From a virus: a stretch of 5,894 nt of DNA. The notes beneath the pieces were generated by a model. It ran no database searches and was not told the origin of the DNA. It saw nothing but the letters and a program-made list of their open reading frames with translations. The stretch spans positions 1 to 5,894 of IMG/VR virus record IMGVR_UViG_3300045988_034719; one strand, given 5' to 3'. Below, piece by piece: positions 1-5,894 of this stretch. Both the position numbers and the translations under genes were made by a program. Every line of letters begins with the position of its first letter. Position 1 is the first letter of the stretch.

Positions 1-55
1 AGCAGGCAGCGAGAGCAGCACAGGCAGCGAAAGCACAACCGGCAGTGTGACAGCA
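1..55. repeat. Terminal redundancy, left copy. Exact 55-nt duplicate of 5840..5894, the signature of a circular genome or assembly overlap.
   Basis: Base-by-base comparison: agcaggcagcgagagcagcacaggcagcgaaagcacaaccggcagtgtgacagca occurs at both window ends. The reading frame of the 3' end ORF (5736..5894) continues seamlessly into 2..757. Confidence 0.95.
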
Positions 56-757
56 CCGCAGCAGATCGGAACGGCACAAATCAGCACACCAACAGGCATT
101 GCCACATTTGGCAACCAGAGCAGTGTAAACACCGCAAACGCACTGCAAATGATGAGCGGACTACTGAGCAACCTCGCAAACGCCGGGAGCCAAGCAAGCG
201 CCAAGAAGTACAACAGCGCAGAAGCAGCAGCAGAAAGAGCGTTTCAGAAGGAAATGCGCGGGACAGCCTATCAAGACACTGTAAAAGATATGATCGCAGC
301 GGGCATCAATCCTATCTTAGCAGCGACCAACGGCGCAACAAGCTCACCGTCAGGAGCATCTGCAAGCATTGGAAGCCAACGTTATAACCAGCAGAGCGCA
401 CAAGCCGCAAGCGTATCCGCAATGTACGAATATGGCAACAACACAGCAGAGCTAGCAGACAAATACTTACAGCTAGCAAAACAGAGCACCAGCGCAAAAC
501 AGTATAAAAGCGCGAAAAGCTGGGAGCAGGCAGCAAGCGAGCTGGCAAGCTCAAGCGCAAAACAGGTGCAACAGTACACCTATACAGCTAACAAGTTAAG
601 CACAGGCCTTGCGGATGCTGGTAAAGCAGCAAAAGACGCTGTAAAAAAGGCTGGTAAAGCAGCCAAAGAAAGTATTGACAAGGCAGCAAAAAAATATGCA
701 GAAAAACAGATTGAAAAATACCGATCTAGAAAATTTGACGCATACAGAGGAGAATAA
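2..757 (+). CDS. VP2: Microviridae VP2 (DNA pilot / minor capsid protein), 3' portion. The ORF starts at 5736 and wraps across the circular junction. Full length is about 286 aa.
   Basis: The frame is open from position 2, and the track's GTG at 47 is an internal Val. It contains the conserved gokushovirus VP2 motif FQKEMRGTAYQDTVKDMIAAGINPILA (compare the ..STAYQR.V.DM.AAGLNP.L. family motif). The middle is Q/A/S-rich and the C-terminus is Lys/Ala-rich and helical. Stop TAA at 755..757, followed by a terminator. Confidence 0.85.
   Translation, partial: AGSESSTGSESTTGSVTAPQQIGTAQISTPTGIATFGNQSSVNTANALQMMSGLLSNLANAGSQASAKKYNSAEAAAERAFQKEMRGTAYQDTVKDMIAAGINPILAATNGATSSPSGASASIGSQRYNQQSAQAASVSAMYEYGNNTAELADKYLQLAKQSTSAKQYKSAKSWEQAASELASSSAKQVQQYTYTANKLSTGLADAGKAAKDAVKKAGKAAKESIDKAAKKYAEKQIEKYRSRKFDAYRGE
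617..669 (+). repeat. 33-nt-period direct repeat inside VP2, encoding 11-residue (hendecad) repeats AGKAAKDAVKK / AGKAAKESIDK.
   Basis: gctggtaaagcagcaaaaga (617..636) recurs as gctggtaaagcagccaaaga (650..669), with 19/20 identity and an offset of exactly 33 nt. Confidence 0.7.
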
Positions 758-763
758 GAAAGG

Positions 764-794
764 AAGGGGGGATGGCAAAACATCCCCCCTTTTT
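764..794 (+). terminator. Rho-independent terminator downstream of VP2.
   Basis: Stem ggggggatg (766..774) pairs with catcccccc (781..789), loop gcaaaa. AA/TT extension, then T-tract ttttt (790..794). It lies 7 nt after the VP2 stop. Confidence 0.8.
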
Positions 795-832
795 GTAACA
801 ATAATCCAAAAAATAAAGAATGTGGAAAACTT

Positions 833-1001
833 GAGTTTTCAACACTTTCAACAGGTTTTCAACAACAAGTTGCACAAAGAAATTCGTCAAAATGACGAAC
901 ATTCAACAATTCAACAAGTTTTCAACAAAGTATTCAACAGGAAAAAAGGCAATAAATAAACGTAGAAGCGTTAAAAAAACGAGTTTTCAACACTTTCAAC
1001 A
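833..1001 (+). repeat. Iteron array: nine same-strand copies of TTCAACA in three clusters, including a perfect 21-bp direct repeat.
   Basis: TTCAACA starts at 838, 847, 858, 902, 910, 921, 933, 986 and 995. Within-cluster spacing is 8-12 bp. gagttttcaacactttcaaca occurs at both 833..853 and 981..1001. The extended form (A/G)GTTTTCAACA occurs at 834, 854, 917 and 982. The region is non-coding by my assessment. Confidence 0.85.
883..899 (+). other. Small perfect hairpin between iteron clusters.
   Basis: ttcgtca (883..889), aaa, tgacgaa (893..899): a 7-bp inverted repeat with a 3-nt spacer. Confidence 0.5.
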
Positions 1002-1020
1002 CTACTACTACTACTACTAC
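1001..1020 (+). repeat. Trinucleotide microsatellite (ACT)6AC.
   Basis: actactactactactactac read directly. It abuts the last TTCAACA iteron (995..1001) and lies 7-10 nt upstream of an AT-rich TAATATATAAA box (1028..1038). Confidence 0.95.
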
Positions 1021-1044
1021 AACAAGTTAATATATAAAGAAAGC

Positions 1045-1095
1045 GAGGTGTCAACCGGCACAAGATAGACAAGGAAGCTTGTGCCGGTAACAAAA
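1045..1095 (+). promoter_or_regulatory. VP4 translation-initiation region: SD GAGGTG (1045..1050), an 11-bp-stem hairpin (1054..1064 / 1078..1088, 13-nt loop), then 7 nt before ATG 1096.
   Basis: accggcacaag (1054..1064) is the perfect reverse complement of cttgtgccggt (1078..1088). Loop atagacaaggaag contains a second SD-like AAGGAAG. The alternative GTG start (1081) is inside the 3' stem arm. Confidence 0.5.
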
Positions 1096-2085
1096 ATGCC
1101 ATGTACAAAACCATTAGTATTTCAGATGGACACGAAAAAACCGCAACTGTGGGGAAGTCTGGAAAACCTATCCAAACAAGGACTGCAAACGGACATCATG
1201 GACGGAATCAAAAAAGGAAAATTCGCATTGTTACCATGCGGTAAGTGTGAGTATTGCAGAAAACAGATGGCTGATCAATGGGCAACCAGAATAGAGCTAG
1301 AGGCCAAAGAATGGGACGATGTGATTTTTCTAACGCTGACATATGACGATGAACATATCCCATACGGCGAGATTATCAAAGGCTACAGAAGCATTCAAAG
1401 TCAGACAGTAAGCAAACGAGACGTGCAGCTATTTATAAAGCGGCTACGAAAAGCATACAAGAAACCAATAAAATATTTCCTAGCTGCTGAATATGGCGAC
1501 AGAACAAAAAGACCGCACTACCATGCAATAGTATTTGGACTAAAACCACCGGATGCACAATGGTATAAAAACCAAAAGGGCAACAGCTATTTTAAAAGCG
1601 AGTGGCTAGAAAAAATCTGGGGCAAAGGCATGATAGACTTTTCACCAGCGCAACCGGGAAGTTTCGCATATGTGGCACAATACGTCAACAAAAAAGCCAT
1701 AGGCGCAGAGCAAGCGGCGAAATACTGGATGGAAGGCCGAGAGCCAGAGTTCCGCATCATGTCGAAAGGCATCGGCGAAAAGTATCTGAACGAACACAAA
1801 AACGAAATCTTGAAAACAGATAGCATCATCTGTGCAGGAGGCCGCAAGAAAAGGCCTCCGCGCTATTTTGATAAGATTCTAGATAAAGATACCAGCCAAG
1901 ACACAGAAAACTATTTTAGGGCACATTCTGACGAGCTGAGAGAGGTTAGAGCCAGACGCAGACGCAGCGCAATACAAAGTTTGGTCAATCTCGAGCAAAA
2001 CACAAGTGTAGATTATGAAACCTATCTCAACATTCAGAAAGAAAAAGACAAGCTAAAGCAAAAGTGGCGTGAGCCGAAAGCATAA
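1081..2085 (+). CDS. VP4: Microviridae VP4 replication initiation protein (HUH rolling-circle endonuclease). The alternative start ATG 1096 is equally plausible.
   Basis: Motifs read from the translation: CGKCEYCRKQMADQW (Cys cluster typical of gokushovirus VP4), FLTLTY (RCR motif 1), RPHYHAIVFG (HUH motif, H146/H148, nt 1516..1524), YVAQYVNKK (catalytic Tyr motif, Y197/Y201, nt 1669..1683). Starting at ATG 1096 gives MPCTKPL, a typical VP4 N-terminus. Confidence 0.9.
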   Translation: MPVTKMPCTKPLVFQMDTKKPQLWGSLENLSKQGLQTDIMDGIKKGKFALLPCGKCEYCRKQMADQWATRIELEAKEWDDVIFLTLTYDDEHIPYGEIIKGYRSIQSQTVSKRDVQLFIKRLRKAYKKPIKYFLAAEYGDRTKRPHYHAIVFGLKPPDAQWYKNQKGNSYFKSEWLEKIWGKGMIDFSPAQPGSFAYVAQYVNKKAIGAEQAAKYWMEGREPEFRIMSKGIGEKYLNEHKNEILKTDSIICAGGRKKRPPRYFDKILDKDTSQDTENYFRAHSDELREVRARRRRSAIQSLVNLEQNTSVDYETYLNIQKEKDKLKQKWREPKA

Positions 2086-2199
2086 CGCGCACAGCGCTAA
2101 CAAGGAATGGATTAGCCGAGCTCCGCATACGCTACGCACGGCAAGGCGCTAAAGCGCCATTCAAAACAAAGGAGCAAGACCTGCGCAAAAAATAAAAAC

Positions 2200-2228
2200 T
2201 TGACAAATGTAAAATTTTATGATATAAT
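2200..2228 (+). promoter_or_regulatory. Consensus sigma70/sigmaA promoter P1 (TTGACA, 17 nt, TGnTATAAT).
   Basis: TTGACA at 2200..2205, exact 17-nt spacer, TATAAT at 2223..2228, extended -10 TG at 2220..2221, A-rich UP-like tract aaaaaataaaaac upstream. The predicted TSS is near 2235, just upstream of the SD and ATG of the 2254 ORF. Confidence 0.75.
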
Positions 2229-2253
2229 AGATCATAGAAAGGGGGCAAACATT

Positions 2254-2433
2254 ATGCCATACAAATACAACGAAAAAGGAAAGGTGATCGGATACACACC
2301 TAGTATAGGAGGATTCATGAGAGAACCATACACCACAAACAAAAAAACGGGCGAATGGGAGAGCCGATCAGGGCAACTCACAAGACAAAGAATCAATCAA
2401 TTAGACAAAGAGAAAAAAATAGCATGGTTTTGA
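2254..2433 (+). CDS. Hypothetical small protein, 59 aa (MPYKYNEKGKVIGYTPSIGGFMREPYTT...).
   Basis: ATG 2254 is preceded by SD AAGGGGG (2239..2245) with an 8-nt spacer, downstream of P1. The track's TTG start at 2200 coincides with the -35 box and would lie upstream of the TSS. I recognise no family. Confidence 0.55.
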   Translation: MPYKYNEKGKVIGYTPSIGGFMREPYTTNKKTGEWESRSGQLTRQRINQLDKEKKIAWF

Positions 2434-2445
2434 GAGGTAAGCAAT

Positions 2446-2616
2446 ATGAAAGAGTACAAATTTTTGGTGAGAGTATATTTCAAAAACGGTACAAAAGAAC
2501 AAAGAACGTGGATAGAGACAACCAAAGACGCCAAGGAAAAAGCAAAAAAATGCAGAGAGGAAACAAACGTAACAAAAGTAACGCTTTACAGAATAGACCA
2601 AACATTTGAGTTTTAA
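2446..2616 (+). CDS. Hypothetical small protein, 56 aa (MKEYKFLVRVYFKNGTKEQRTWIETTKDAKEKAKKCREETNVTKVTLYRIDQTFEF). Not in the ORF track because it is under 60 aa.
   Basis: Hand translation. SD GAGAGG (2432..2437) lies 8 nt before ATG 2446. The sequence has a globular-looking beta-beta-alpha-beta residue pattern. The stop at 2614..2616 lies 4 nt before the -35 box of P2 (tight packing). The competing 2355..2609 frame is Lys/Arg low-complexity. Confidence 0.5.
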   Translation: MKEYKFLVRVYFKNGTKEQRTWIETTKDAKEKAKKCREETNVTKVTLYRIDQTFEF

Positions 2617-2620
2617 AAAG

Positions 2621-2648
2621 TTGACAAAAATCAAAAACATAGTAAAAT
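2621..2648 (+). promoter_or_regulatory. Near-consensus sigma70/sigmaA promoter P2 (TTGACA, 16 nt, TAAAAT) in front of the peptidase gene.
   Basis: TTGACA at 2621..2626 and TAAAAT at 2643..2648. The upstream context AAAAAGTTGACAAA closely resembles P1 (AAAAACTTGACAAA). Caveat: the predicted TSS (about 2655) falls at the SD, giving a very short leader. Confidence 0.55.
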
Positions 2649-2667
2649 AAGAATAGGAGAATTAAAC

Positions 2668-3060
2668 ATGGAAATCAAAGCATATGTAGTAGAAGAACAA
2701 GGAAACGAACAAATCACAGACCACTTCAAAGTAAAAGAATTCGCTTGCAAAGACGGGACACCAATCGTATTTGTTGACGATTATTTAGCAGTCATTCTAG
2801 AGATCGCAAGAAAAAAAATCAATAAACCAATCGTCATCACAAGCGGATACCGCACAATAAACCACAACAAAAAAGTAGGAGGAGCAAAATACAGCTACCA
2901 TACGAGAGGCATGGCAGCAGACATCAGAGCGAACGGAGTAACGCCAAAGGAACTTGCAAAAGTGCTAAACAGCATCGTACCAAACAGCGGCGGAATCATC
3001 GTATATGAAAACTGGGTGCATTTCGACACAAGAAATGAAAAATACAGAAAGGGGGTGTAA
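2668..3060 (+). CDS. Zinc D-Ala-D-Ala carboxypeptidase-like cell-wall peptidase, Peptidase M15 (M15_3/M15A-type). Candidate endolysin, 130 aa.
   Basis: Motifs: ITSGYRTINHNKKVGGAKYSYHTRGMAADI and WVHFDTR, giving the H-x6-D...H zinc triad (H78, D85, H118) and the SxHxxGxAxD signature of LAS/M15 peptidases. SD AGGAGA (2655..2660) lies 7 nt before the ATG. No signal peptide or TM segment is evident. Confidence 0.85.
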   Translation: MEIKAYVVEEQGNEQITDHFKVKEFACKDGTPIVFVDDYLAVILEIARKKINKPIVITSGYRTINHNKKVGGAKYSYHTRGMAADIRANGVTPKELAKVLNSIVPNSGGIIVYENWVHFDTRNEKYRKGV

Positions 3061-3062
3061 CA

Positions 3063-3179
3063 ATGGCACACAGAAGCGGAGCAGGTCGAGGCGATCAAAG
3101 ACGCTTTACCCAGACAGCAAAGAGGGTAAAAAATGTCAACGTCCGACCGAAGGTCTCACGCGGCGGCATCCGACTGTAA
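3063..3179 (+). CDS. Small basic DNA-binding/packaging protein (phiX J-like / gokushovirus ORF8-like), 38 aa. Not in the ORF track.
   Basis: Hand translation: MAHRSGAGRGDQRRFTQTAKRVKNVNVRPKVSRGGIRL. It is rich in Arg/Lys and ends in RGGIRL, resembling the C-terminal (M)RGGIR(L/F) that I recall in gokushovirus ORF8 proteins. SD GGGGGTG (3051..3057) lies 5 nt before ATG 3063. The start is 2 nt after the peptidase stop. Confidence 0.65.
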   Translation: MAHRSGAGRGDQRRFTQTAKRVKNVNVRPKVSRGGIRL

Positions 3180-3210
3180 GCAATACAAAACAAAGAAAGG
3201 AGGTGACTTA

Positions 3211-3327
3211 ATGGCATTAATCAAAGTCAAGGACGTTAAAGAAGCAATCGCGCTGATGATGAACATCCTTGAAAAGCTAGATGAAATCTACCACGCACTG
3301 AAAGACGCAAACAAAGACAAAGAATAA
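3211..3327 (+). CDS. Hypothetical 38-aa amphipathic helical protein (MALIKVKDVKEAIALMMNILEKLDEIYHALKDANKDKE).
   Basis: ATG 3211 is preceded by AGAAAGGAGGTGA (3194..3206), a 13-nt perfect complement to the canonical 16S rRNA 3' end and the strongest SD in the window. The track's longer 3133 start has no SD and overlaps the J-like ORF. Confidence 0.55.
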   Translation: MALIKVKDVKEAIALMMNILEKLDEIYHALKDANKDKE

Positions 3328-3337
3328 AGGAGAAAAC

Positions 3338-3592
3338 ATGAAACTGAAATTCTACTCATTCCACGATGCACTGACCAACGGCTACTCTCAGCCGTTTCTG
3401 CAGAACAACAGGGCACAGGCAGTCCGGACGGCACGATGGAAGGCCAACGAAAGCAAACCGAGTGAAATTGAAGATATTTCACTCGTAGAACTGGGCGAAT
3501 TCGACACGGAAACCGGCTACATGAGCGAGGCAATGCCTGAACACATCGCACGACTCATCGACCTGAAGGAGACGACAAATGCTAAATCCTGA
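3338..3592 (+). CDS. VP5: Gokushovirus VP5-like protein (non-structural, implicated in ssDNA synthesis/packaging), 84 aa.
   Basis: The pattern MKLKFYSFHD..YSQPF......AVRT........ED..LVELGEFDTETG matches the conserved VP5 layout (Y.QPF, A.R.F, ED..L.E.G.FD..TG). SD AAGGAG (3327..3332) lies 5 nt before the ATG. Confidence 0.8.
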   Translation: MKLKFYSFHDALTNGYSQPFLQNNRAQAVRTARWKANESKPSEIEDISLVELGEFDTETGYMSEAMPEHIARLIDLKETTNAKS

Positions 3593-3998
3593 TGTGATGG
3601 TAAGATACTACGGACTGCCGACCGAAAGAGCGGCAAACAATCCGGGCAGCAAGACCTCGCCAACGTGGAAAGCAGTTAAACGACCGAACGGCACAACCGA
3701 CTACATCGAGCAGCCGGACGAGGACACATACGAAAAAATCCAGAAAGCGGGCGAGGGCTACGACCTTGCAAGCGCGATCGCACGGCTGGAAGCAGGGGAT
3801 ACGAGCATCAAGGCAAAGAGCATGGTGTACACCGAAAACACTGAACTCGAAAATCTGCCGAAAGACATCATGACGATGCACGAAAAAGCAGAAGCAGCAG
3901 CCGAAACAATGGAACAGCTGAAACAGGTGCAGCAGACCGAACAGCCGAAGCCAGAAGAAAAAAAGGAAGAGGTGAAGGAAAACGAACCGAAACAGTGA
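3579..3998 (+). CDS. Putative internal scaffolding protein (VP3-like), 139 aa. The functional assignment is tentative.
   Basis: SD AAGGAG (3566..3571) lies 7 nt before ATG 3579. There is a 14-nt overlap with VP5, and the gene sits immediately upstream of VP1. The protein is acidic with a highly charged C-terminal tail (EQPKPEEKKEEVKENEPKQ). I can verify only weak resemblance to VP3 motifs. Confidence 0.55.
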   Translation: MLNPDVMVRYYGLPTERAANNPGSKTSPTWKAVKRPNGTTDYIEQPDEDTYEKIQKAGEGYDLASAIARLEAGDTSIKAKSMVYTENTELENLPKDIMTMHEKAEAAAETMEQLKQVQQTEQPKPEEKKEEVKENEPKQ

Positions 3999-4023
3999 AA
4001 ACCATTTCGCGCAAGTGCCGCGA

Positions 4024-5697
4024 ATGGAACGACCACGAAGCAAATTTGACAGAAGCCATCAGCTACTGACAACCATCAACGAAGGCGATCTGGTGCCCAT
4101 CTACTGCGATGAAGTGCTTCCGGGTGATACAGCACGTGTACGCCTGAACGGACTTATCCGTATGAGTACGCCCATCTATCCGGTGATGGATAACGCATAC
4201 ATGGACACATATTTCTTCTTTGTTCCATGCCGTCTGCTGTGGGAACACTGGGAGAACATGTTCGGCGAGAATGACACCGACTACTGGGCGCAAAAGATGG
4301 AATACAGCACACCCAAATGCGAAATTGGTGGGGAGAGCGGACTTAACAACGGCAGCATTGGCGACTATTTCGGACTGCCTACCGGAGTAAAAAACAAAAT
4401 CAGAGTGAACGCGCTGCCAGCACGCGCCTACGCCATGATATATAACGAATGGTTTAGAGATGAAAATATTGAAGCGCCGTTAATGTTAGGGTACAAAAAA
4501 GAAGATAGCGGAGGAAAAGAAACAAATCCCGGGAACGCAACAAAAGATTACTACGCAAACAAACCAAAACTAACGACAAACACAAACGAAGCGATCTTAT
4601 ACGCACGACAACCGGCAAAGGTGGGAAAATTCCACGACTACTTCACATCCTGTCTTCCTACTCCGTTGAAAAATAACCCTGTTAACCCTGTGGAAATCAG
4701 CCTGACGGGAAATGCACCACTTAAACTAGGAGATATAAATGGTAAACCAATTCCAAGCCTAGAAACGGGCAATGGGCCAGAAATGGTAATAGCCGTGAAC
4801 CAAAATCTAAATACCCCGGGAACGTTAACTTACGCAAGAGCAACAGACAAAAAAGTAATGCAATTCACGGGAAAAAAGGATAACGAAATCGGCGGAGGCG
4901 GTTTTTTGTACACAGACCTCAGCGGAGTAAGCGCAATCAGCATTCAGGATTTGCGCATGGCTATTGCCTTGCAGCACATCTTTGAAGCAGATGCACGCAA
5001 CGGCACGCGCTACCGCGAGTTCCTTTCCGGCGCATGGGGCGTGACAAGTCCGGACAGCCGTTTACAGATTCCTGAATACATCGGCGGCCAACGCATCGCG
5101 ATCAATATCAACCAGGTTGTCCAGACGAGCCAGACAGACCCGACAACCAAACAGGCACTGGGCAATACGGCGGCATACAGTCTGACCACGTGCAGCAAGC
5201 AAATGGTGGACTATGCGGCGACCGAATACGGCTATATCATCGGTCTGGCAGTAGTGCGAGTAGAGCACAGTTACCAGCAGGGACTGGCAACCAAGTGGAC
5301 ACGTGGCGGGCGGTTCACCTACTACGACCCGAGACTAGCAGCACTGGGCGAGCAGCCGGTATATAACCGTGAAATCTATGCACAGGGCACAACCGAAGAT
5401 GACGAAATCTTTGGATATCAAGAGGCATGGGCGGATTACCGCTACAAGCCTTCCTACGTAACCGGAGAAATGAGATCCAATTACCAGACAAGTCTGGATG
5501 CATGGCACTATGCAGACGATTATAACGCTCTTCCGCGTCTCTCGGCAGAGTGGATCCAAGAGGGACAGGAGAACATCGACCGAACGATTGCAGTAACAAG
5601 CGCAAAAAGCCACCAATTCTTGTGTGACTTCTACTTCACAGAAGATTGGTATCGCGAAATGCCTATCTATAGCATCCCGGGCATCGAGAGAATCTAA
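4024..5697 (+). CDS. VP1: Microviridae major capsid protein VP1 (Phage_F family), 557 aa. An alternative GTG start lies at 4015.
   Basis: N-terminal RSKFDRSH....T.NEGDLVPIYCDEVLPGDT, plus LRMAIALQHIFEADARNGTRYREFLSGAWGV..PDSRLQIPEYIGG, are hallmark VP1/F motifs. No SD precedes either start. A 6-bp hairpin (4006..4011 / 4019..4024) spans the start region. Confidence 0.95.
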   Translation: MERPRSKFDRSHQLLTTINEGDLVPIYCDEVLPGDTARVRLNGLIRMSTPIYPVMDNAYMDTYFFFVPCRLLWEHWENMFGENDTDYWAQKMEYSTPKCEIGGESGLNNGSIGDYFGLPTGVKNKIRVNALPARAYAMIYNEWFRDENIEAPLMLGYKKEDSGGKETNPGNATKDYYANKPKLTTNTNEAILYARQPAKVGKFHDYFTSCLPTPLKNNPVNPVEISLTGNAPLKLGDINGKPIPSLETGNGPEMVIAVNQNLNTPGTLTYARATDKKVMQFTGKKDNEIGGGGFLYTDLSGVSAISIQDLRMAIALQHIFEADARNGTRYREFLSGAWGVTSPDSRLQIPEYIGGQRIAININQVVQTSQTDPTTKQALGNTAAYSLTTCSKQMVDYAATEYGYIIGLAVVRVEHSYQQGLATKWTRGGRFTYYDPRLAALGEQPVYNREIYAQGTTEDDEIFGYQEAWADYRYKPSYVTGEMRSNYQTSLDAWHYADDYNALPRLSAEWIQEGQENIDRTIAVTSAKSHQFLCDFYFTEDWYREMPIYSIPGIERI

Positions 5698-5707
5698 GAA
5701 AGGAGGA

Positions 5708-5733
5708 AGCCCCGCAAAAGCGGGGCTATTTTT
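5708..5733 (+). terminator. Rho-independent terminator between VP1 and VP2. It also acts as the hairpin bridging SD 5699..5706 to the VP2 ATG at 5736.
   Basis: agccccgc (5708..5715), loop aaaa, gcggggct (5720..5727), then atttttt... (tattttt to 5733). It lies 11 nt after the VP1 stop (5695..5697). Confidence 0.75.
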
Positions 5734-5735
5734 GA

Positions 5736-5894
5736 ATGGAAACATTATTAAGGTTTATGCCATACCTCATGCAAGGACTAAGCATGTTAACGGGCATCAT
5801 AACGAACAGCAACCAGAGCGGCGCCAAGAACAGCCAAGAAGCAGGCAGCGAGAGCAGCACAGGCAGCGAAAGCACAACCGGCAGTGTGACAGCA
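5736..5894 (+). CDS. VP2: VP2 (DNA pilot protein), 5' portion. It runs off the window end and continues at position 56 of the window (5840..5894 duplicates 1..55).
   Basis: The frame from ATG 5736 (METLLRFMPYLMQGLSMLTGIITNSNQSG..) is in frame with 2..757, since 5886 GTG equals 47 GTG. It has the hydrophobic N-terminus typical of VP2. An in-frame alternative ATG lies at 5757. Confidence 0.75.
   Translation, partial: METLLRFMPYLMQGLSMLTGIITNSNQSGAKNSQEAGSESSTGSESTTGSVTA
5840..5894. repeat. Terminal redundancy, right copy. Identical to 1..55.
   Basis: Same 55-nt string as 1..55. Implies a circular unit length of 5839 nt. Confidence 0.95.

Follow-up and report, generated by a model that had tools for sequence, protein, structure and literature searches.

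What is the repeat array upstream of the replication initiator gene for, and which protein reads it? The window (the whole analysed stretch, 5,894 nucleotides) carries a circular microvirus genome of 5839 nt, in which a 338-nt gap lies between the stop codon of VP2 (757) and the ATG of VP4 (1096). The first-pass annotation had described nine same-strand TTCAACA copies in this gap, in three clusters with a spacing of 8-12 bp, and had proposed a Rep-binding origin, a complementary-strand origin or an array of operators controlling VP4. An exact count on both strands of the genome gives nine copies of TTCAACA. They lie between 838 and 1001 on the + strand (starting at 838, 847, 858, 902, 910, 921, 933, 986 and 995), and no further copy occurs on either strand. 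The spacings within the clusters are 9 and 11, then 8, 11 and 12, and finally 9 bp. The expected number is 1.02 (sd 1.10), and nine copies were reached in none of 200 shuffles, which places the repeat far above chance. Moreover, the 21-nt direct repeat 833-853/981-1001 is exact, and is nested in a 28-nt pair with 89% identity. The other landmarks first seen by eye, namely the 7-bp hairpin between clusters 1 and 2, the AT-rich box and the 11-bp-stem hairpin, are likewise present (Table 1).

The gap had also been judged to lack credible coding capacity. Two open reading frames (675-959 and 892-1068) run across the repeats, and both were rejected as genes because they are not conserved in the relatives L003 and L004. 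A scan of 700-1200 against Rfam yielded no match near the gathering score, and the cassette formed by the repeats and the adjoining region has no match among the PLSDB plasmids. We found no prior description of such a DnaA-type cassette.

Table 1. Features in and around the predicted DnaA-type cassette of the window.
Feature	Position	Strand	Remarks
Terminator-like GC-rich hairpin and T-run	764..791	+	Context, outside the cassette; directly after the VP2 stop
Inverted DnaA-type box TGTGGAAAA (TTTTCCACA on the - strand)	821..829	-	Tenth box
Box cluster 1	836..864	+	TTTTCAACA 836-844, CTTTCAACA 845-853, TTTTCAACA 856-864
Spacer word GTTGCACAAA	869..878	+	Conserved columns
Palindrome TTCGTCA-aaa-TGACGAA	883..899		Between clusters 1 and 2; 7 bp, 3-nt loop
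Box cluster 2	900..939	+	CATTCAACA 900-908, AATTCAACA 908-916, TTTTCAACA 919-927, TATTCAACA 931-939
Fused tandem boxes	984..1001	+	TTTTCAACA 984-992, CTTTCAACA 993-1001; adjoin the unwinding region
(CTA)6, six perfect predicted DnaA-trios (3'-GAT-5' on the - strand)	1002..1019	+	Abuts the fused boxes
AT-rich candidate unwinding element	1020..1043		Opens with the conserved word CAACAAGTT (1020-1028)
Predicted VP4 translational control structure, separate element	1045..1100	+	SD GAGGTG 1045-1050, hairpin 1054-1088, ATG 1096
VP4, HUH rolling-circle replication initiator	1096..2085	+	Pfam REP_ORF2-G2P 9.6e-21; PHROG 942 1.7e-108

The terminator-like hairpin upstream of the array is a perfect 11-bp inverted repeat (764-774/781-791) followed by TTTTT, and is kept in close relatives. 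Comparison across relatives gave 88 distinct cassettes, in which box cluster 1 is at least 90% conserved. The spacer word GTTGCACAAA, with two mismatches to the relaxed DnaA-box consensus TTWTNCACA, is possibly a weak box, and TTGCACA is found on the box strand in 77 of the 88 cassettes. The slot of the palindrome is occupied in other lineages by a different palindrome, CGTCAtaaTGACG or TGCACAAAtggtTTTGTGCA.

Which protein recognizes the repeats? The substitutions among the 88 cassettes point to DnaA. Slot 3 of cluster 1 alternates between TTTTCAACA (45 cassettes) and TTTTCCACA (41), and slot 919-927 holds TTTTCAACA (37), the canonical box TTATCCACA (36) or TTTTCCACA (8). TTTTCAACA differs at one position from TTWTNCACA and at two from TTATCCACA. 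The E. coli relaxed consensus alone finds one perfect and four one-mismatch boxes (5 per 250 bp), a count no higher than the shuffle maximum, and the DnaA assignment therefore rests on the dialect of the host. A genome-wide pattern scan located same-strand irregular arrays between dnaA and dnaN, as identified by Pfam and tblastn, in at least four bacterial assemblies. Among the matches listed, these are the Oscillospiraceae contigs L133 and L084, the Ruminococcus contig L101 and the Clostridiales contig L106, and it is on these four assembled, metagenome-derived contigs that the host link rests. TTTTCAACA is the dominant 9-mer in the dnaA-dnaN intergenic regions of the matching assemblies. In L133, the 833-bp intergenic region contains 24 TTC[AC]ACA words, as compared to 2 in the 3057 bp outside it. 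The dnaA-dnaN intergenic regions of L133 and L106 contain no TTWTNCACA, which leaves the TTC[AC]ACA words as their sole candidate DnaA boxes. None of the contigs from the scan encodes microvirus proteins, indicating host loci rather than prophages. Many further matches to the triple-TTCAACA pattern come from Bacteroidales, cyanobacteria and Stappiaceae; they form regular satellites of 8-12 bp, lack a neighbouring dnaA and were discounted.

The DnaA proteins of the hosts fit an altered box. As compared to the E. coli, B. subtilis and C. difficile proteins, three of the six base-contact residues are changed in the four host DnaAs (P423 to V, A or N; T435 to S; H439 to Y). A DnaA box of the form TT(T/A)TCAACA has been proposed for Mollicutes, and ttttcaaca has served as a non-perfect DnaA box. 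Judged by sequence, the dialect of the window, in which TTTTCAACA is interchangeable with TTTTCCACA and TTATCCACA, is the one found at chromosome origins in Oscillospiraceae and Ruminococcus of the gut.

Could the same words instead be read by Spo0A? Binding of this sporulation regulator would then halt the phage and enclose its genome in spores, after the manner of phi29 and Nf, and many Oscillospiraceae do sporulate. TGTtGAA has been proven to act as a weak 0A box: in phage Nf, a pair of these boxes separated by 3 bp is footprinted by Spo0A of B. subtilis (PMC2731898). The boxes of the window are spaced by about 10-11 bp. However, the TTNNACA words of the 88 cassettes include 685 TTCAACA and 51 TTCCACA on the box strand, and zero TTCGACA/TGTCGAA. 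The perfect 0A box is also absent from the host intergenic regions, which have only the one-mismatch TGTtGAA. Furthermore, the variants drift toward the DnaA consensus (TTCCACA, TTATCCACA), two mismatches away from the 0A box, and both the trios described below and the dnaA-dnaN location of the host arrays favour DnaA. The window thus resembles the phi29-family arrays as a case of a lytic phage with arrays of host master-regulator sites, but it lacks consensus 0A boxes, its variants follow the DnaA consensus, and trios are attached. We regard Spo0A boxes as a quite improbable explanation of the array; a joint use of the boxes by DnaA and Spo0A is possible.

How would DnaA open the duplex? The fused pair is followed by (CTA)6, a run unique in the genome, which arose in none of 200 shuffles and is at least 90% conserved in the 88 cassettes. 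We compared this arrangement with the basal unwinding system and its DnaA-trios, as defined previously (PMC8287927, PMC7561715, PMC8235120, PMC13220808). First, the boxes of this system deviate from the standard motif of the species by at most two mismatches, and TTTTCAACA lies within this limit, as judged by the host intergenic regions and the slot swaps. Second, a tandem pair is located by the trios, with at most 16 bp (peak 10-13) between the better box and the first trio. Here, the boxes 984-992 and 993-1001 are adjacent, and the first trio starts at 1002, which leaves a spacer of 9 bp; the box-trio spacer is 13 bp in the relatives with CTCC or CCCC. Fused boxes of this kind beside the unwinding element have been described in both B. 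subtilis and H. pylori (PMC8235120). Third, at least three trios (3'-NAN-5', best GAT) occur in the correct polarity relative to the boxes. The window has six perfect units, with the polarity of the host origins read from dnaA to dnaN and of the C. difficile trio (PMC7561715). Fourth, a GC-rich spacer of 4-5 bp separates box and trios. The window has none, and its trios start at once, while most of the other cassettes have CTCC/TCCC, CCCC or GCCC; this spacer was reported to be non-essential for unwinding in H. pylori (PMC8235120). Finally, the trios are followed by an AT-rich stretch, which is short (~24 bp). Among the 5839 positions, the region 1003-1043 (windows starting at 1003 and 1024) ranks second in duplex instability, for windows of both 20 and 40 bp. 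The (CTA)6 run also yields the + strand TnnT periodicity of the DnaD recognition element. With high confidence, we predict that the repeats, (CTA)6 and the AT-rich stretch constitute DnaA boxes with a trio and unwinding unit.

The host origins support this prediction. The fused box pair before the trios is also present in L133, L084, L106 and L175, and the layout of L084, 'TTTTCAACAgTTTCAACAccccCTACTACTACTACTA + AT-rich', matches that of 984-1043 in the window, 'TTTTCAACAcTTTCAACA(CTA)6 + AT-rich'. The succession of fused boxes, CTA/GAT trios of the same polarity and AT-rich stretch is shared with the basal unwinding system of the Firmicute oriC (B. subtilis boxes 6/7, C. difficile oriC2), where boxes 6/7 of B. 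subtilis are the counterpart of the fused pair 984-1001. Upstream box clusters are also common to both, and the agreement with the Oscillospiraceae/Ruminococcus dnaA-dnaN layout is nearly word for word. Unlike the Firmicute oriC, the unit of the window is about 220 bp long, lies in a 5.8-kb ssDNA virus away from dnaA, lacks the GC spacer, carries the virus-specific word CAACAAGTT, moves between lineages and is invertible. A chromosomal origin is found beside dnaA/dnaN, and this unit sits between VP2 and VP4; it would thus be oriC-like in its working, and not a chromosomal oriC.

Does the cassette belong to the Rep or to the host? The cassette, ~220 bp long, is shared by at least four lineages of gokushoviruses, in which the Reps are 35-45% and the VP1 proteins 40-48% identical, and the cassette itself is about 75-80% identical. 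The boxes-plus-trios pattern was found in 91 viral contigs of IMG/VR, all 91 of which are microvirus-sized, and the cassette is also present in 32 GenBank records; nowhere is the region annotated. It is always intergenic and flanks rep, either upstream or downstream; it is inverted in 49 genomes, and in groups B-D it lies on the opposite side of rep. The same boxes are retained even though the Rep of the window is 37% identical to that of L005, and the Reps of groups C and D are 45-59% identical to the L005 Rep. The cassette is absent from 33 related gokushoviruses, and is therefore dispensable for the family. Apart from coding FYFFF codons and T-runs that fit the relaxed trio pattern, no other BUS-like units were found in these 33 relatives. 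In addition, the A>>T skew at four-fold sites tracks the genes and not the cassette, which argues for an action on double-stranded DNA. As far as sequence comparison tells, the cassette follows the host type and not the Rep.

These observations bear directly on the initial proposal that the repeats serve as Rep (VP4) iterons within a rolling-circle origin, or as operators that control VP4. Helically spaced direct repeats by rep with a hairpin nearby, in a cassette that is always intergenic and flanks rep, are what this proposal was built on. However, identical boxes accompany Reps of about 33-45% identity, the boxes are words of the host origins and swap with canonical DnaA boxes, and in most lineages the cassette is inverted and on the far side of rep. 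An operator function is further opposed by the lack of a detectable sigma-70-type promoter on the + strand in 795-1095 and of a fixed promoter geometry across the lineages. Moreover, the hairpin is separable from the repeats. Its arms (1054-1064/1078-1088) are 100% complementary over 11 bp, and GGUGU (1047-1051) pairs with AUGCC (1096-1100); the RNA fold at the VP4 start has an energy of -22.4 kcal/mol (z = -4.03) and is the same in most of 28 sequence variants, a few of which pair differently. Compensatory changes preserve the stem, with A-U, G-C and C-G at one pair and C-G replaced by U-A at another. L024 has its cassette downstream of rep, in inverted orientation, and keeps the hairpin at the beginning of VP4; in L003 and L004, about 250 nt separate the two. 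According to the folding model, the 11-bp hairpin is a separate VP4 translational control element, in which the SD is paired with the start codon. Rep iterons or a VP4 operator thus appear highly improbable. What survives of the proposed origin or regulatory hub is a conserved, non-coding, probably protein-binding and origin-like array, while Rep as its binder and the logic of a nick-site hairpin of the RCR/CRESS type are abandoned. As with the phiX174 and RCR-plasmid/CRESS origins, the array is AT-rich and near an HUH initiator gene; in contrast to the RCR/CRESS origins, its repeats do not track the Rep, and its hairpin is an mRNA structure.

A second way to involve VP4 is nicking assisted by DnaA, in which the opening of the duplex would free the word CAACAAGTT/AATAT on the CTA strand for the VP4 cut and make the cassette the rolling-circle origin. 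HUH nucleases require a single-stranded substrate, and three of the four arrangements have the AT-rich end turned toward rep. The word CAACAAGT is virus-specific and as conserved as the boxes (at least 90% in the cassettes), and CAACAAGTT/CAACAAGT is absent from the host origins seen. A loose likeness to CAACTTGATATTAAT of phiX, which by eye agrees at 10 of 18 positions, points the same way. Against such nicking, the word is wholly missing from the 33 cassette-less relatives, whose Reps are similarly divergent. Furthermore, if the cassette held the nick site, the viruses with inverted cassettes would package the antisense strand, yet the coding-strand composition skew is unchanged in the 49 inverted cases. 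The origin of phiX174 itself is 30 bp long and lies inside gene A. The conserved 30-bp phiX origin CAACTTGATATTAATAAC... has no match with up to three mismatches on either strand, which agrees with the initial view that the layout differs from that of phiX174. DnaA-assisted nicking is unlikely on these grounds.

If DnaA is the ligand, would it merely be titrated? In this alternative, the multicopy replicative form (RF) would soak up DnaA-ATP and either shut off host initiation or tie the phage to the growth state of the host, with no replication start at the cassette. Plasmid-borne DnaA-box clusters disturb initiation in B. subtilis, each RF offers ten boxes, and a sink or sensor would be independent of orientation and dispensable, as observed. 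The cassette also resembles datA and other DnaA-titrating clusters in having many boxes in a short stretch on a possibly multicopy replicon. However, titration sites are devoid of the trio and unwinding unit, whereas the window has both: a sink needs neither phased trios of correct polarity nor an AT-rich stretch, and these are conserved like the boxes. Titration as the sole role is therefore an unlikely reading.

The cassette could also act on the single-stranded genome as a complementary-strand origin, either through a DnaA-box hairpin of the ABC-primosome type or as a primase start on CTA. Indeed, 821-844 can fold into a hairpin with a duplex box, and Firmicute primases prefer d(CTA) templates. 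Nevertheless, the DNA fold is weak (z = -1.66, matched by 10 of 200 shuffles), the centroid structure retains only the 883-899 hairpin, 56 of the 88 cassettes lack the inverted box, and the cassette has no conserved polarity with respect to the genes. This part of the initial proposal is thus very hard to maintain.

The repeats suggest, by their mimicry of the chromosome origin of the likely gut-bacterial hosts, that the phage recruits DnaA. Mobile replicons such as P1 oriR, F, pSC101, RK2 and R6K borrow the host DnaA via boxes in their origins. These plasmid and phage origins combine a few DnaA boxes with iterons of their own, whereas the window has no second repeat family and a unit of the chromosomal type.

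From the observed anatomy, host-origin match, conservation and mobility of the cassette, we infer DnaA binding, duplex opening and a purpose in the following manner. Host DnaA-ATP would first bind to the ten boxes, in three clusters, on the double-stranded RF. DnaA would then polymerise from the tandem pair 984-1001 onto the trio strand, and the duplex would open at about 1002-1043. Subsequently, DnaA, DnaD and DnaB would load the helicase, creating an initiation site of the host-chromosome type on the RF. The RF could finally be amplified or maintained by bidirectional replication without VP4, a mode that is independent of the orientation of the cassette. On balance, we lean toward this whole chain, in which 821-1043 would be a mobile oriC-like module that recruits the host DnaA to the RF, opens the duplex, and serves replication or maintenance. 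Replication or maintenance of the RF as the purpose of the module, taken for itself, stands at about even chances. Several points count against the chain, among them the missing GC spacer, the shortness of the AT-rich stretch, the conserved virus-specific word, the 33 relatives that have no cassette, and the binding of TGTtGAA pairs by Spo0A. Moreover, microviruses are not known to use DnaA, and the function of the B. subtilis oriC normally also involves the box cluster upstream of dnaA. More tentatively, and with a probability that we put well below that of the chain, the RF might persist as a DnaA-driven, Rep-independent minichromosome in a plasmid-like carrier state. The cassette would then be a host-compatibility module that is swapped between lineages, its dialect revealing the host clade.

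Microviridae are the textbook case of Rep-driven rolling-circle replication, and gokushoviruses dominate the ssDNA phage fraction of mammalian guts. A mobile DnaA unwinding cassette in at least four of their lineages would imply that an ssDNA phage uses the host initiator directly. The minichromosome reading, if true, would add a carrier state to phages that are thought to be strictly lytic rolling-circle replicators. The box dialect, which points to Oscillospiraceae/Ruminococcus, may serve as a sequence-based host predictor for uncultured microviruses. On the bacterial side, the variant DnaA box TTTTCAACA and the altered DNA-contact residues would characterize a major gut bacterial family.

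Two points were recognized in addition to those of the first-pass annotation: the importance of (CTA)6 (1002-1019) and the inverted box at 821-829. The latter is the only perfect match to TTWTNCACA in the genome and is present in 32 of the 88 cassettes. It is spanned by a 29-nt match (96.5%) to the Ruminococcaceae assembly L099.

The nine same-strand TTCAACA copies that the first-pass annotation had described upstream of VP4 (Rep, the HUH rolling-circle replication initiator) are borne out by exact counting. All of them lie on the + strand, one being expected and none of 200 shuffles reaching nine, and a whole-genome count of both strands finds zero copies outside the array. The reported direct repeat is exact over 21 nt, the 7-bp palindrome and the AT-rich box are confirmed, and the arms of the 11-bp hairpin are perfect. 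The region was also correctly described as lacking credible coding capacity: two ORFs crossing the repeats are not retained in relatives. In relatives with genomes 75-86% identical, TTCAACA is near-invariant while the spacers drift. Two elements had been overlooked, namely an inverted tenth box and a (CTA)6 run, the sole such run in the genome. The boxes, as 9-mers, read TTTTCAACA (four copies), CTTTCAACA (two), TATTCAACA, AATTCAACA and CATTCAACA (one each). Hereafter, the ~220-bp module of putative DnaA boxes, CTA trios and AT-rich stretch is called the “cassette”. Conservation across 88 distinct cassettes is at least 90% for the boxes, for the CTA run and for the CAACAAGT that comes next. 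The duplex stability of the trio and AT-rich segment is the second lowest of the genome, the lowest being that of a strong promoter at 2200. Between box clusters 1 and 2, each lineage has a palindrome of differing sequence (TTCGTCAaaaTGACGAA, CGTCAtaaTGACG or TGCACAAAtggtTTTGTGCA), as compared among the window, the related viral contig L184 and the group B cassettes described below. GC-rich inverted repeats containing runs of alternating purines and pyrimidines (e.g., GCGCGTGCGCACGCGCGCGAAAACGCACGCGCGCGCACGCG) lie beside the cassette in most lineages, and are missing in the window.

What are these repeats? TTTTCAACA is one step off the relaxed DnaA box TTWTNCACA, which the inverted copy matches perfectly. 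In homologous slots of the 88 cassettes, TTTTCAACA and TTTTCCACA occur 45 and 41 times, respectively; in another slot, TTTTCAACA occurs 37 times and TTATCCACA, the canonical high-affinity DnaA box, 36 times, in addition to eight TTTTCCACA. For mollicutes, TT(T/A)TCAACA has been put forward as the DnaA box, and a non-perfect DnaA box used previously reads ttttcaaca. Scored by the E. coli consensus alone, the box cluster of the window does not stand out. The 7-mer is also a proven weak 0A box, but the TTNNACA words of the 88 cassettes include zero consensus 0A boxes, which makes Spo0A binding in the style of phi29 and Nf very unlikely.

We scanned one bacterial genome per species for three closely spaced TTCAACA. 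Among the matches listed are many unrelated satellites; also listed are Oscillospiraceae, Ruminococcus and Clostridiales assemblies with irregular arrays whose copies share one strand. In at least four assemblies (L133 and L084, Oscillospiraceae; L101, Ruminococcus; L106, Clostridiales), the array occupies the dnaA-dnaN interval, where the origin is usually located in Firmicutes. Since no microvirus proteins are encoded on the array contigs, these are host loci. The L133 intergenic DNA (833 bp) contains 24 TTC[AC]ACA, as compared to 2 in the other 3057 bp, and zero conventional DnaA boxes; in the L133 and L106 origins, no other sequence could act as a box. In the L084 and L101 arrays, TTTTCAACA and TTTTCCACA are intermixed. 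Three of the six base-contact residues of DnaA, reported to be conserved between E. coli and Firmicutes, are substituted in these four hosts (P423 to V/A/N, T435 to S, and H439 to Y). Together with the use of TTTTCAACA instead of TTATCCACA, these changes look like a DnaA-box dialect specific to the lineage. Four observations concur in identifying the cassette repeats as probable DnaA boxes: the alternation at homologous slots, the lack of any other box candidate in the L133 and L106 origins, the DnaA substitutions, and the published TCAACA-type boxes.

The top short matches to the viral cassette are L175:2432-2771, in a MAG labelled Mesoaciditoga (36 nt at 94%), and L099:971-999 (29 nt at 96.5%). 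The 8 kb examined there contains no dnaA; these matches may represent mis-binned contigs, the second half of an origin, or a different locus under DnaA control. Long satellite-like arrays with a regular TTCAACA period of 8-12 bp or ~78 bp (L143, L152, L154, L161 from a Stappiaceae assembly, L064, L075, L086 and L164) occur in unrelated bacteria, not near dnaA, and appear unconnected with the viral cassette.

The same terminal layout is present in each host origin and in the window. This layout is that of the basal unwinding system, which has been described for B. subtilis and occurs in most bacterial origins, namely a tandem, often fused, DnaA-box pair, a short spacer, trios and an AT-rich region, with DnaD recognising TnnT opposite the trios (PMC8287927, PMC7561715, PMC8235120, PMC13220808). 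By the published search criteria, the window has a 9-bp spacer, six perfect trios and the correct polarity; the one part missing is the GC spacer, which is optional and present in most sister cassettes. Judged by its sequence, this segment is a putative basal unwinding system. In all cassettes, CAACAAGT(T) stands directly 3′ of the trios and is conserved as strongly as the boxes. It was not found in the host origins or in cassette-less gokushoviruses. Possible roles are as a nick site or as the place where helicase or primase enters.

When 2.9 million viral contigs were scanned for two boxes plus CTACTACTA, 91 matched, every one microvirus-sized, in four lineages. Group A has a window-like Rep and a forward cassette upstream of rep. 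In the other groups, the cassette is downstream of rep: forward in group B (Rep 37% identical to that of the window), and inverted in groups C and D (Rep 55-59% and 45% identical to group B, respectively; 49 genomes). The related genome L024 has a group-A Rep, yet its cassette is inverted and downstream of rep, with the hairpin remaining at the VP4 start. Between groups, VP1 is just 40-48% identical, as compared to ~75-80% for the cassette DNA, and 33 gokushoviruses with VP1 51-55% identical contain none of the boxes, trios or CAACAAGTT word. The 32 GenBank records with the cassette are all gut Microviridae (human, pig, mink, raccoon, monkey and dog), none of which annotates the region; no PLSDB plasmid matched. 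The M15 peptidase was found in 69 of the 114 genomes that have the cassette, versus 2 of 32 cassette-less ones, which fits a common Gram-positive host type. The cassette is mobile and appears to follow host type rather than Rep, and the earlier suggestion that the repeats are Rep-binding iterons is hardly plausible on this distribution.

On which strand does the cassette act? If it contained the nick site, viruses with an inverted cassette would have to package the antisense strand. At four-fold degenerate sites of the coding strand, the whole window and ~90 related genomes have an extreme A>>T bias, the opposite of the T-rich phiX174 (in VP4, A 0.46-0.52 versus T 0.10-0.12). This skew keeps to the coding strand to an equal degree whichever way the cassette is oriented (VP4, 0.68 versus 0.59; VP1, 0.48 versus 0.41). 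As inversion leaves it equal, it is unlikely that DnaA helps to expose a VP4 nick site at CAACAAGTT. Folding of the cassette as a single strand is weak (z = -1.66), which leaves a single-strand origin scarcely credible. The skew and the weak fold both suggest that the cassette works on the double-stranded replicative form (RF), although the skew is a weaker argument than it looks, given that transcription and codon choice are gene-oriented as well.

From the observed anatomy, host-origin match, conservation and mobility of the cassette, we infer that host DnaA-ATP would bind the ten boxes on the RF, extend from the fused box pair onto the trio strand, and melt 1002-1043. The purpose we prefer, at an even chance, is a host-type initiation site, used for RF amplification or maintenance by bidirectional replication. 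Such a site would explain why orientation and position do not matter, why the full unwinding unit is conserved beyond the boxes alone, and why the cassette moves among lineages as an accessory. A sink or sensor for DnaA is a rather unlikely purpose. As a kind of element, the oriC unwinding system is already known, as are DnaA boxes carried by mobile replicons. Full-text literature searches turned up no report of a microvirus, or of any phage, whose genome carries DnaA boxes or trios. A swappable oriC-type cassette in single-stranded-DNA phages, whose function we infer, appears to be new.

The VP4 leader hairpin is an element distinct from the cassette. A GAGGTG Shine-Dalgarno sequence lies 46 nt 5′ of the VP4 ATG, and a covarying hairpin joins both. 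In the leader RNA, GGUGU (Shine-Dalgarno) pairs with AUGCC (start codon), with a 9-11-bp inner stem as the clamp (-22.4 kcal/mol, z = -4.03). Most of 28 sequence variants share this fold, with compensatory stem changes, and a few pair otherwise. The loop conservation arises partly by construction, as the loop was the search anchor, and is also seen in an unanchored alignment. The hairpin looks like a translational throttle on VP4.

Positions of features in the window and, where a handle is given, in host assemblies or related viral genomes
Feature	Position	Strand	Detail
Terminal overlap	1-55 = 5840-5894		55 nt
VP2	5736..757	+	286 aa, spans circle junction
18-nt tandem repeats	3-56		N-terminal part of VP2
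Tenth box	821-829	inverted	TGTGGAAAA
TTCAACA array	838-1001	+
Direct repeat	833-853 / 981-1001
Palindrome	883-899; L184:~4055-4075
Terminal layout	984-1043		TTTTCAACAcTTTCAACA (CTA)6 CAACAAGTTAATATATAAAGAAAG
(CTA)6 trios	1002-1019
Low-stability segment	1003-1043
CAACAAGT(T)	1020-1028
Leader hairpin	1045-1100
Hairpin arms	1054-1064 / 1078-1088
VP4/Rep	1096-2085	+
Recombining block	2084-3069		promoter, small ORFs, M15 peptidase
Conserved element, promoter	2088-2228
Second promoter	2621-2648
Small ORFs, several		+
M15 peptidase	2668-3060	+	Peptidase_M15_3, endolysin-like
VP5, VP3		+
VP1	4015-5697	+
dnaA	L133:272-1633		origin end ...ccccCTATTACTACTACTG + TATTTATATTATATAT
dnaA	L084:2330-3712	-	origin end TTTTCAACAgTTTCAACAccccCTACTACTACTACTA + AT-rich
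dnaA	L101:5092-6477		origin end TTTTCCACAgTTTCAACAtaccCTACTACTACTACTA
dnaA	L106:~3511-4821		origin end TTTTCAACAttTTCAACAcCACTACTAATACTACTA
GC-rich inverted repeats	L003:2975-3020, L004:5405-5450, L005:1120-1170, L184:3875-3905

The window is a single gokushovirus genome of 5839 nt, circular as its 55-nt terminal overlap shows, with every gene on the + strand, and its nearest GenBank records are human-gut gokushoviruses (KX513876, 86.5% identity). Downstream of VP4, a perfect TTGACA-17-TGnTATAAT promoter comes after the conserved element cgcgcacagcgct...ggcaaggcgctaaagcgcc; the second promoter, at 2621, is an 11/12 match. The block containing them shares 85% identity with genomes that are distant elsewhere (KX513868), and is therefore a second recombining module. 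The only cassette-bearing viral contig of about twice the microvirus size, IMGVR_UViG_3300045988_004182 (L255; 10711 nt), could be either a dimer or a concatemer produced by assembly.
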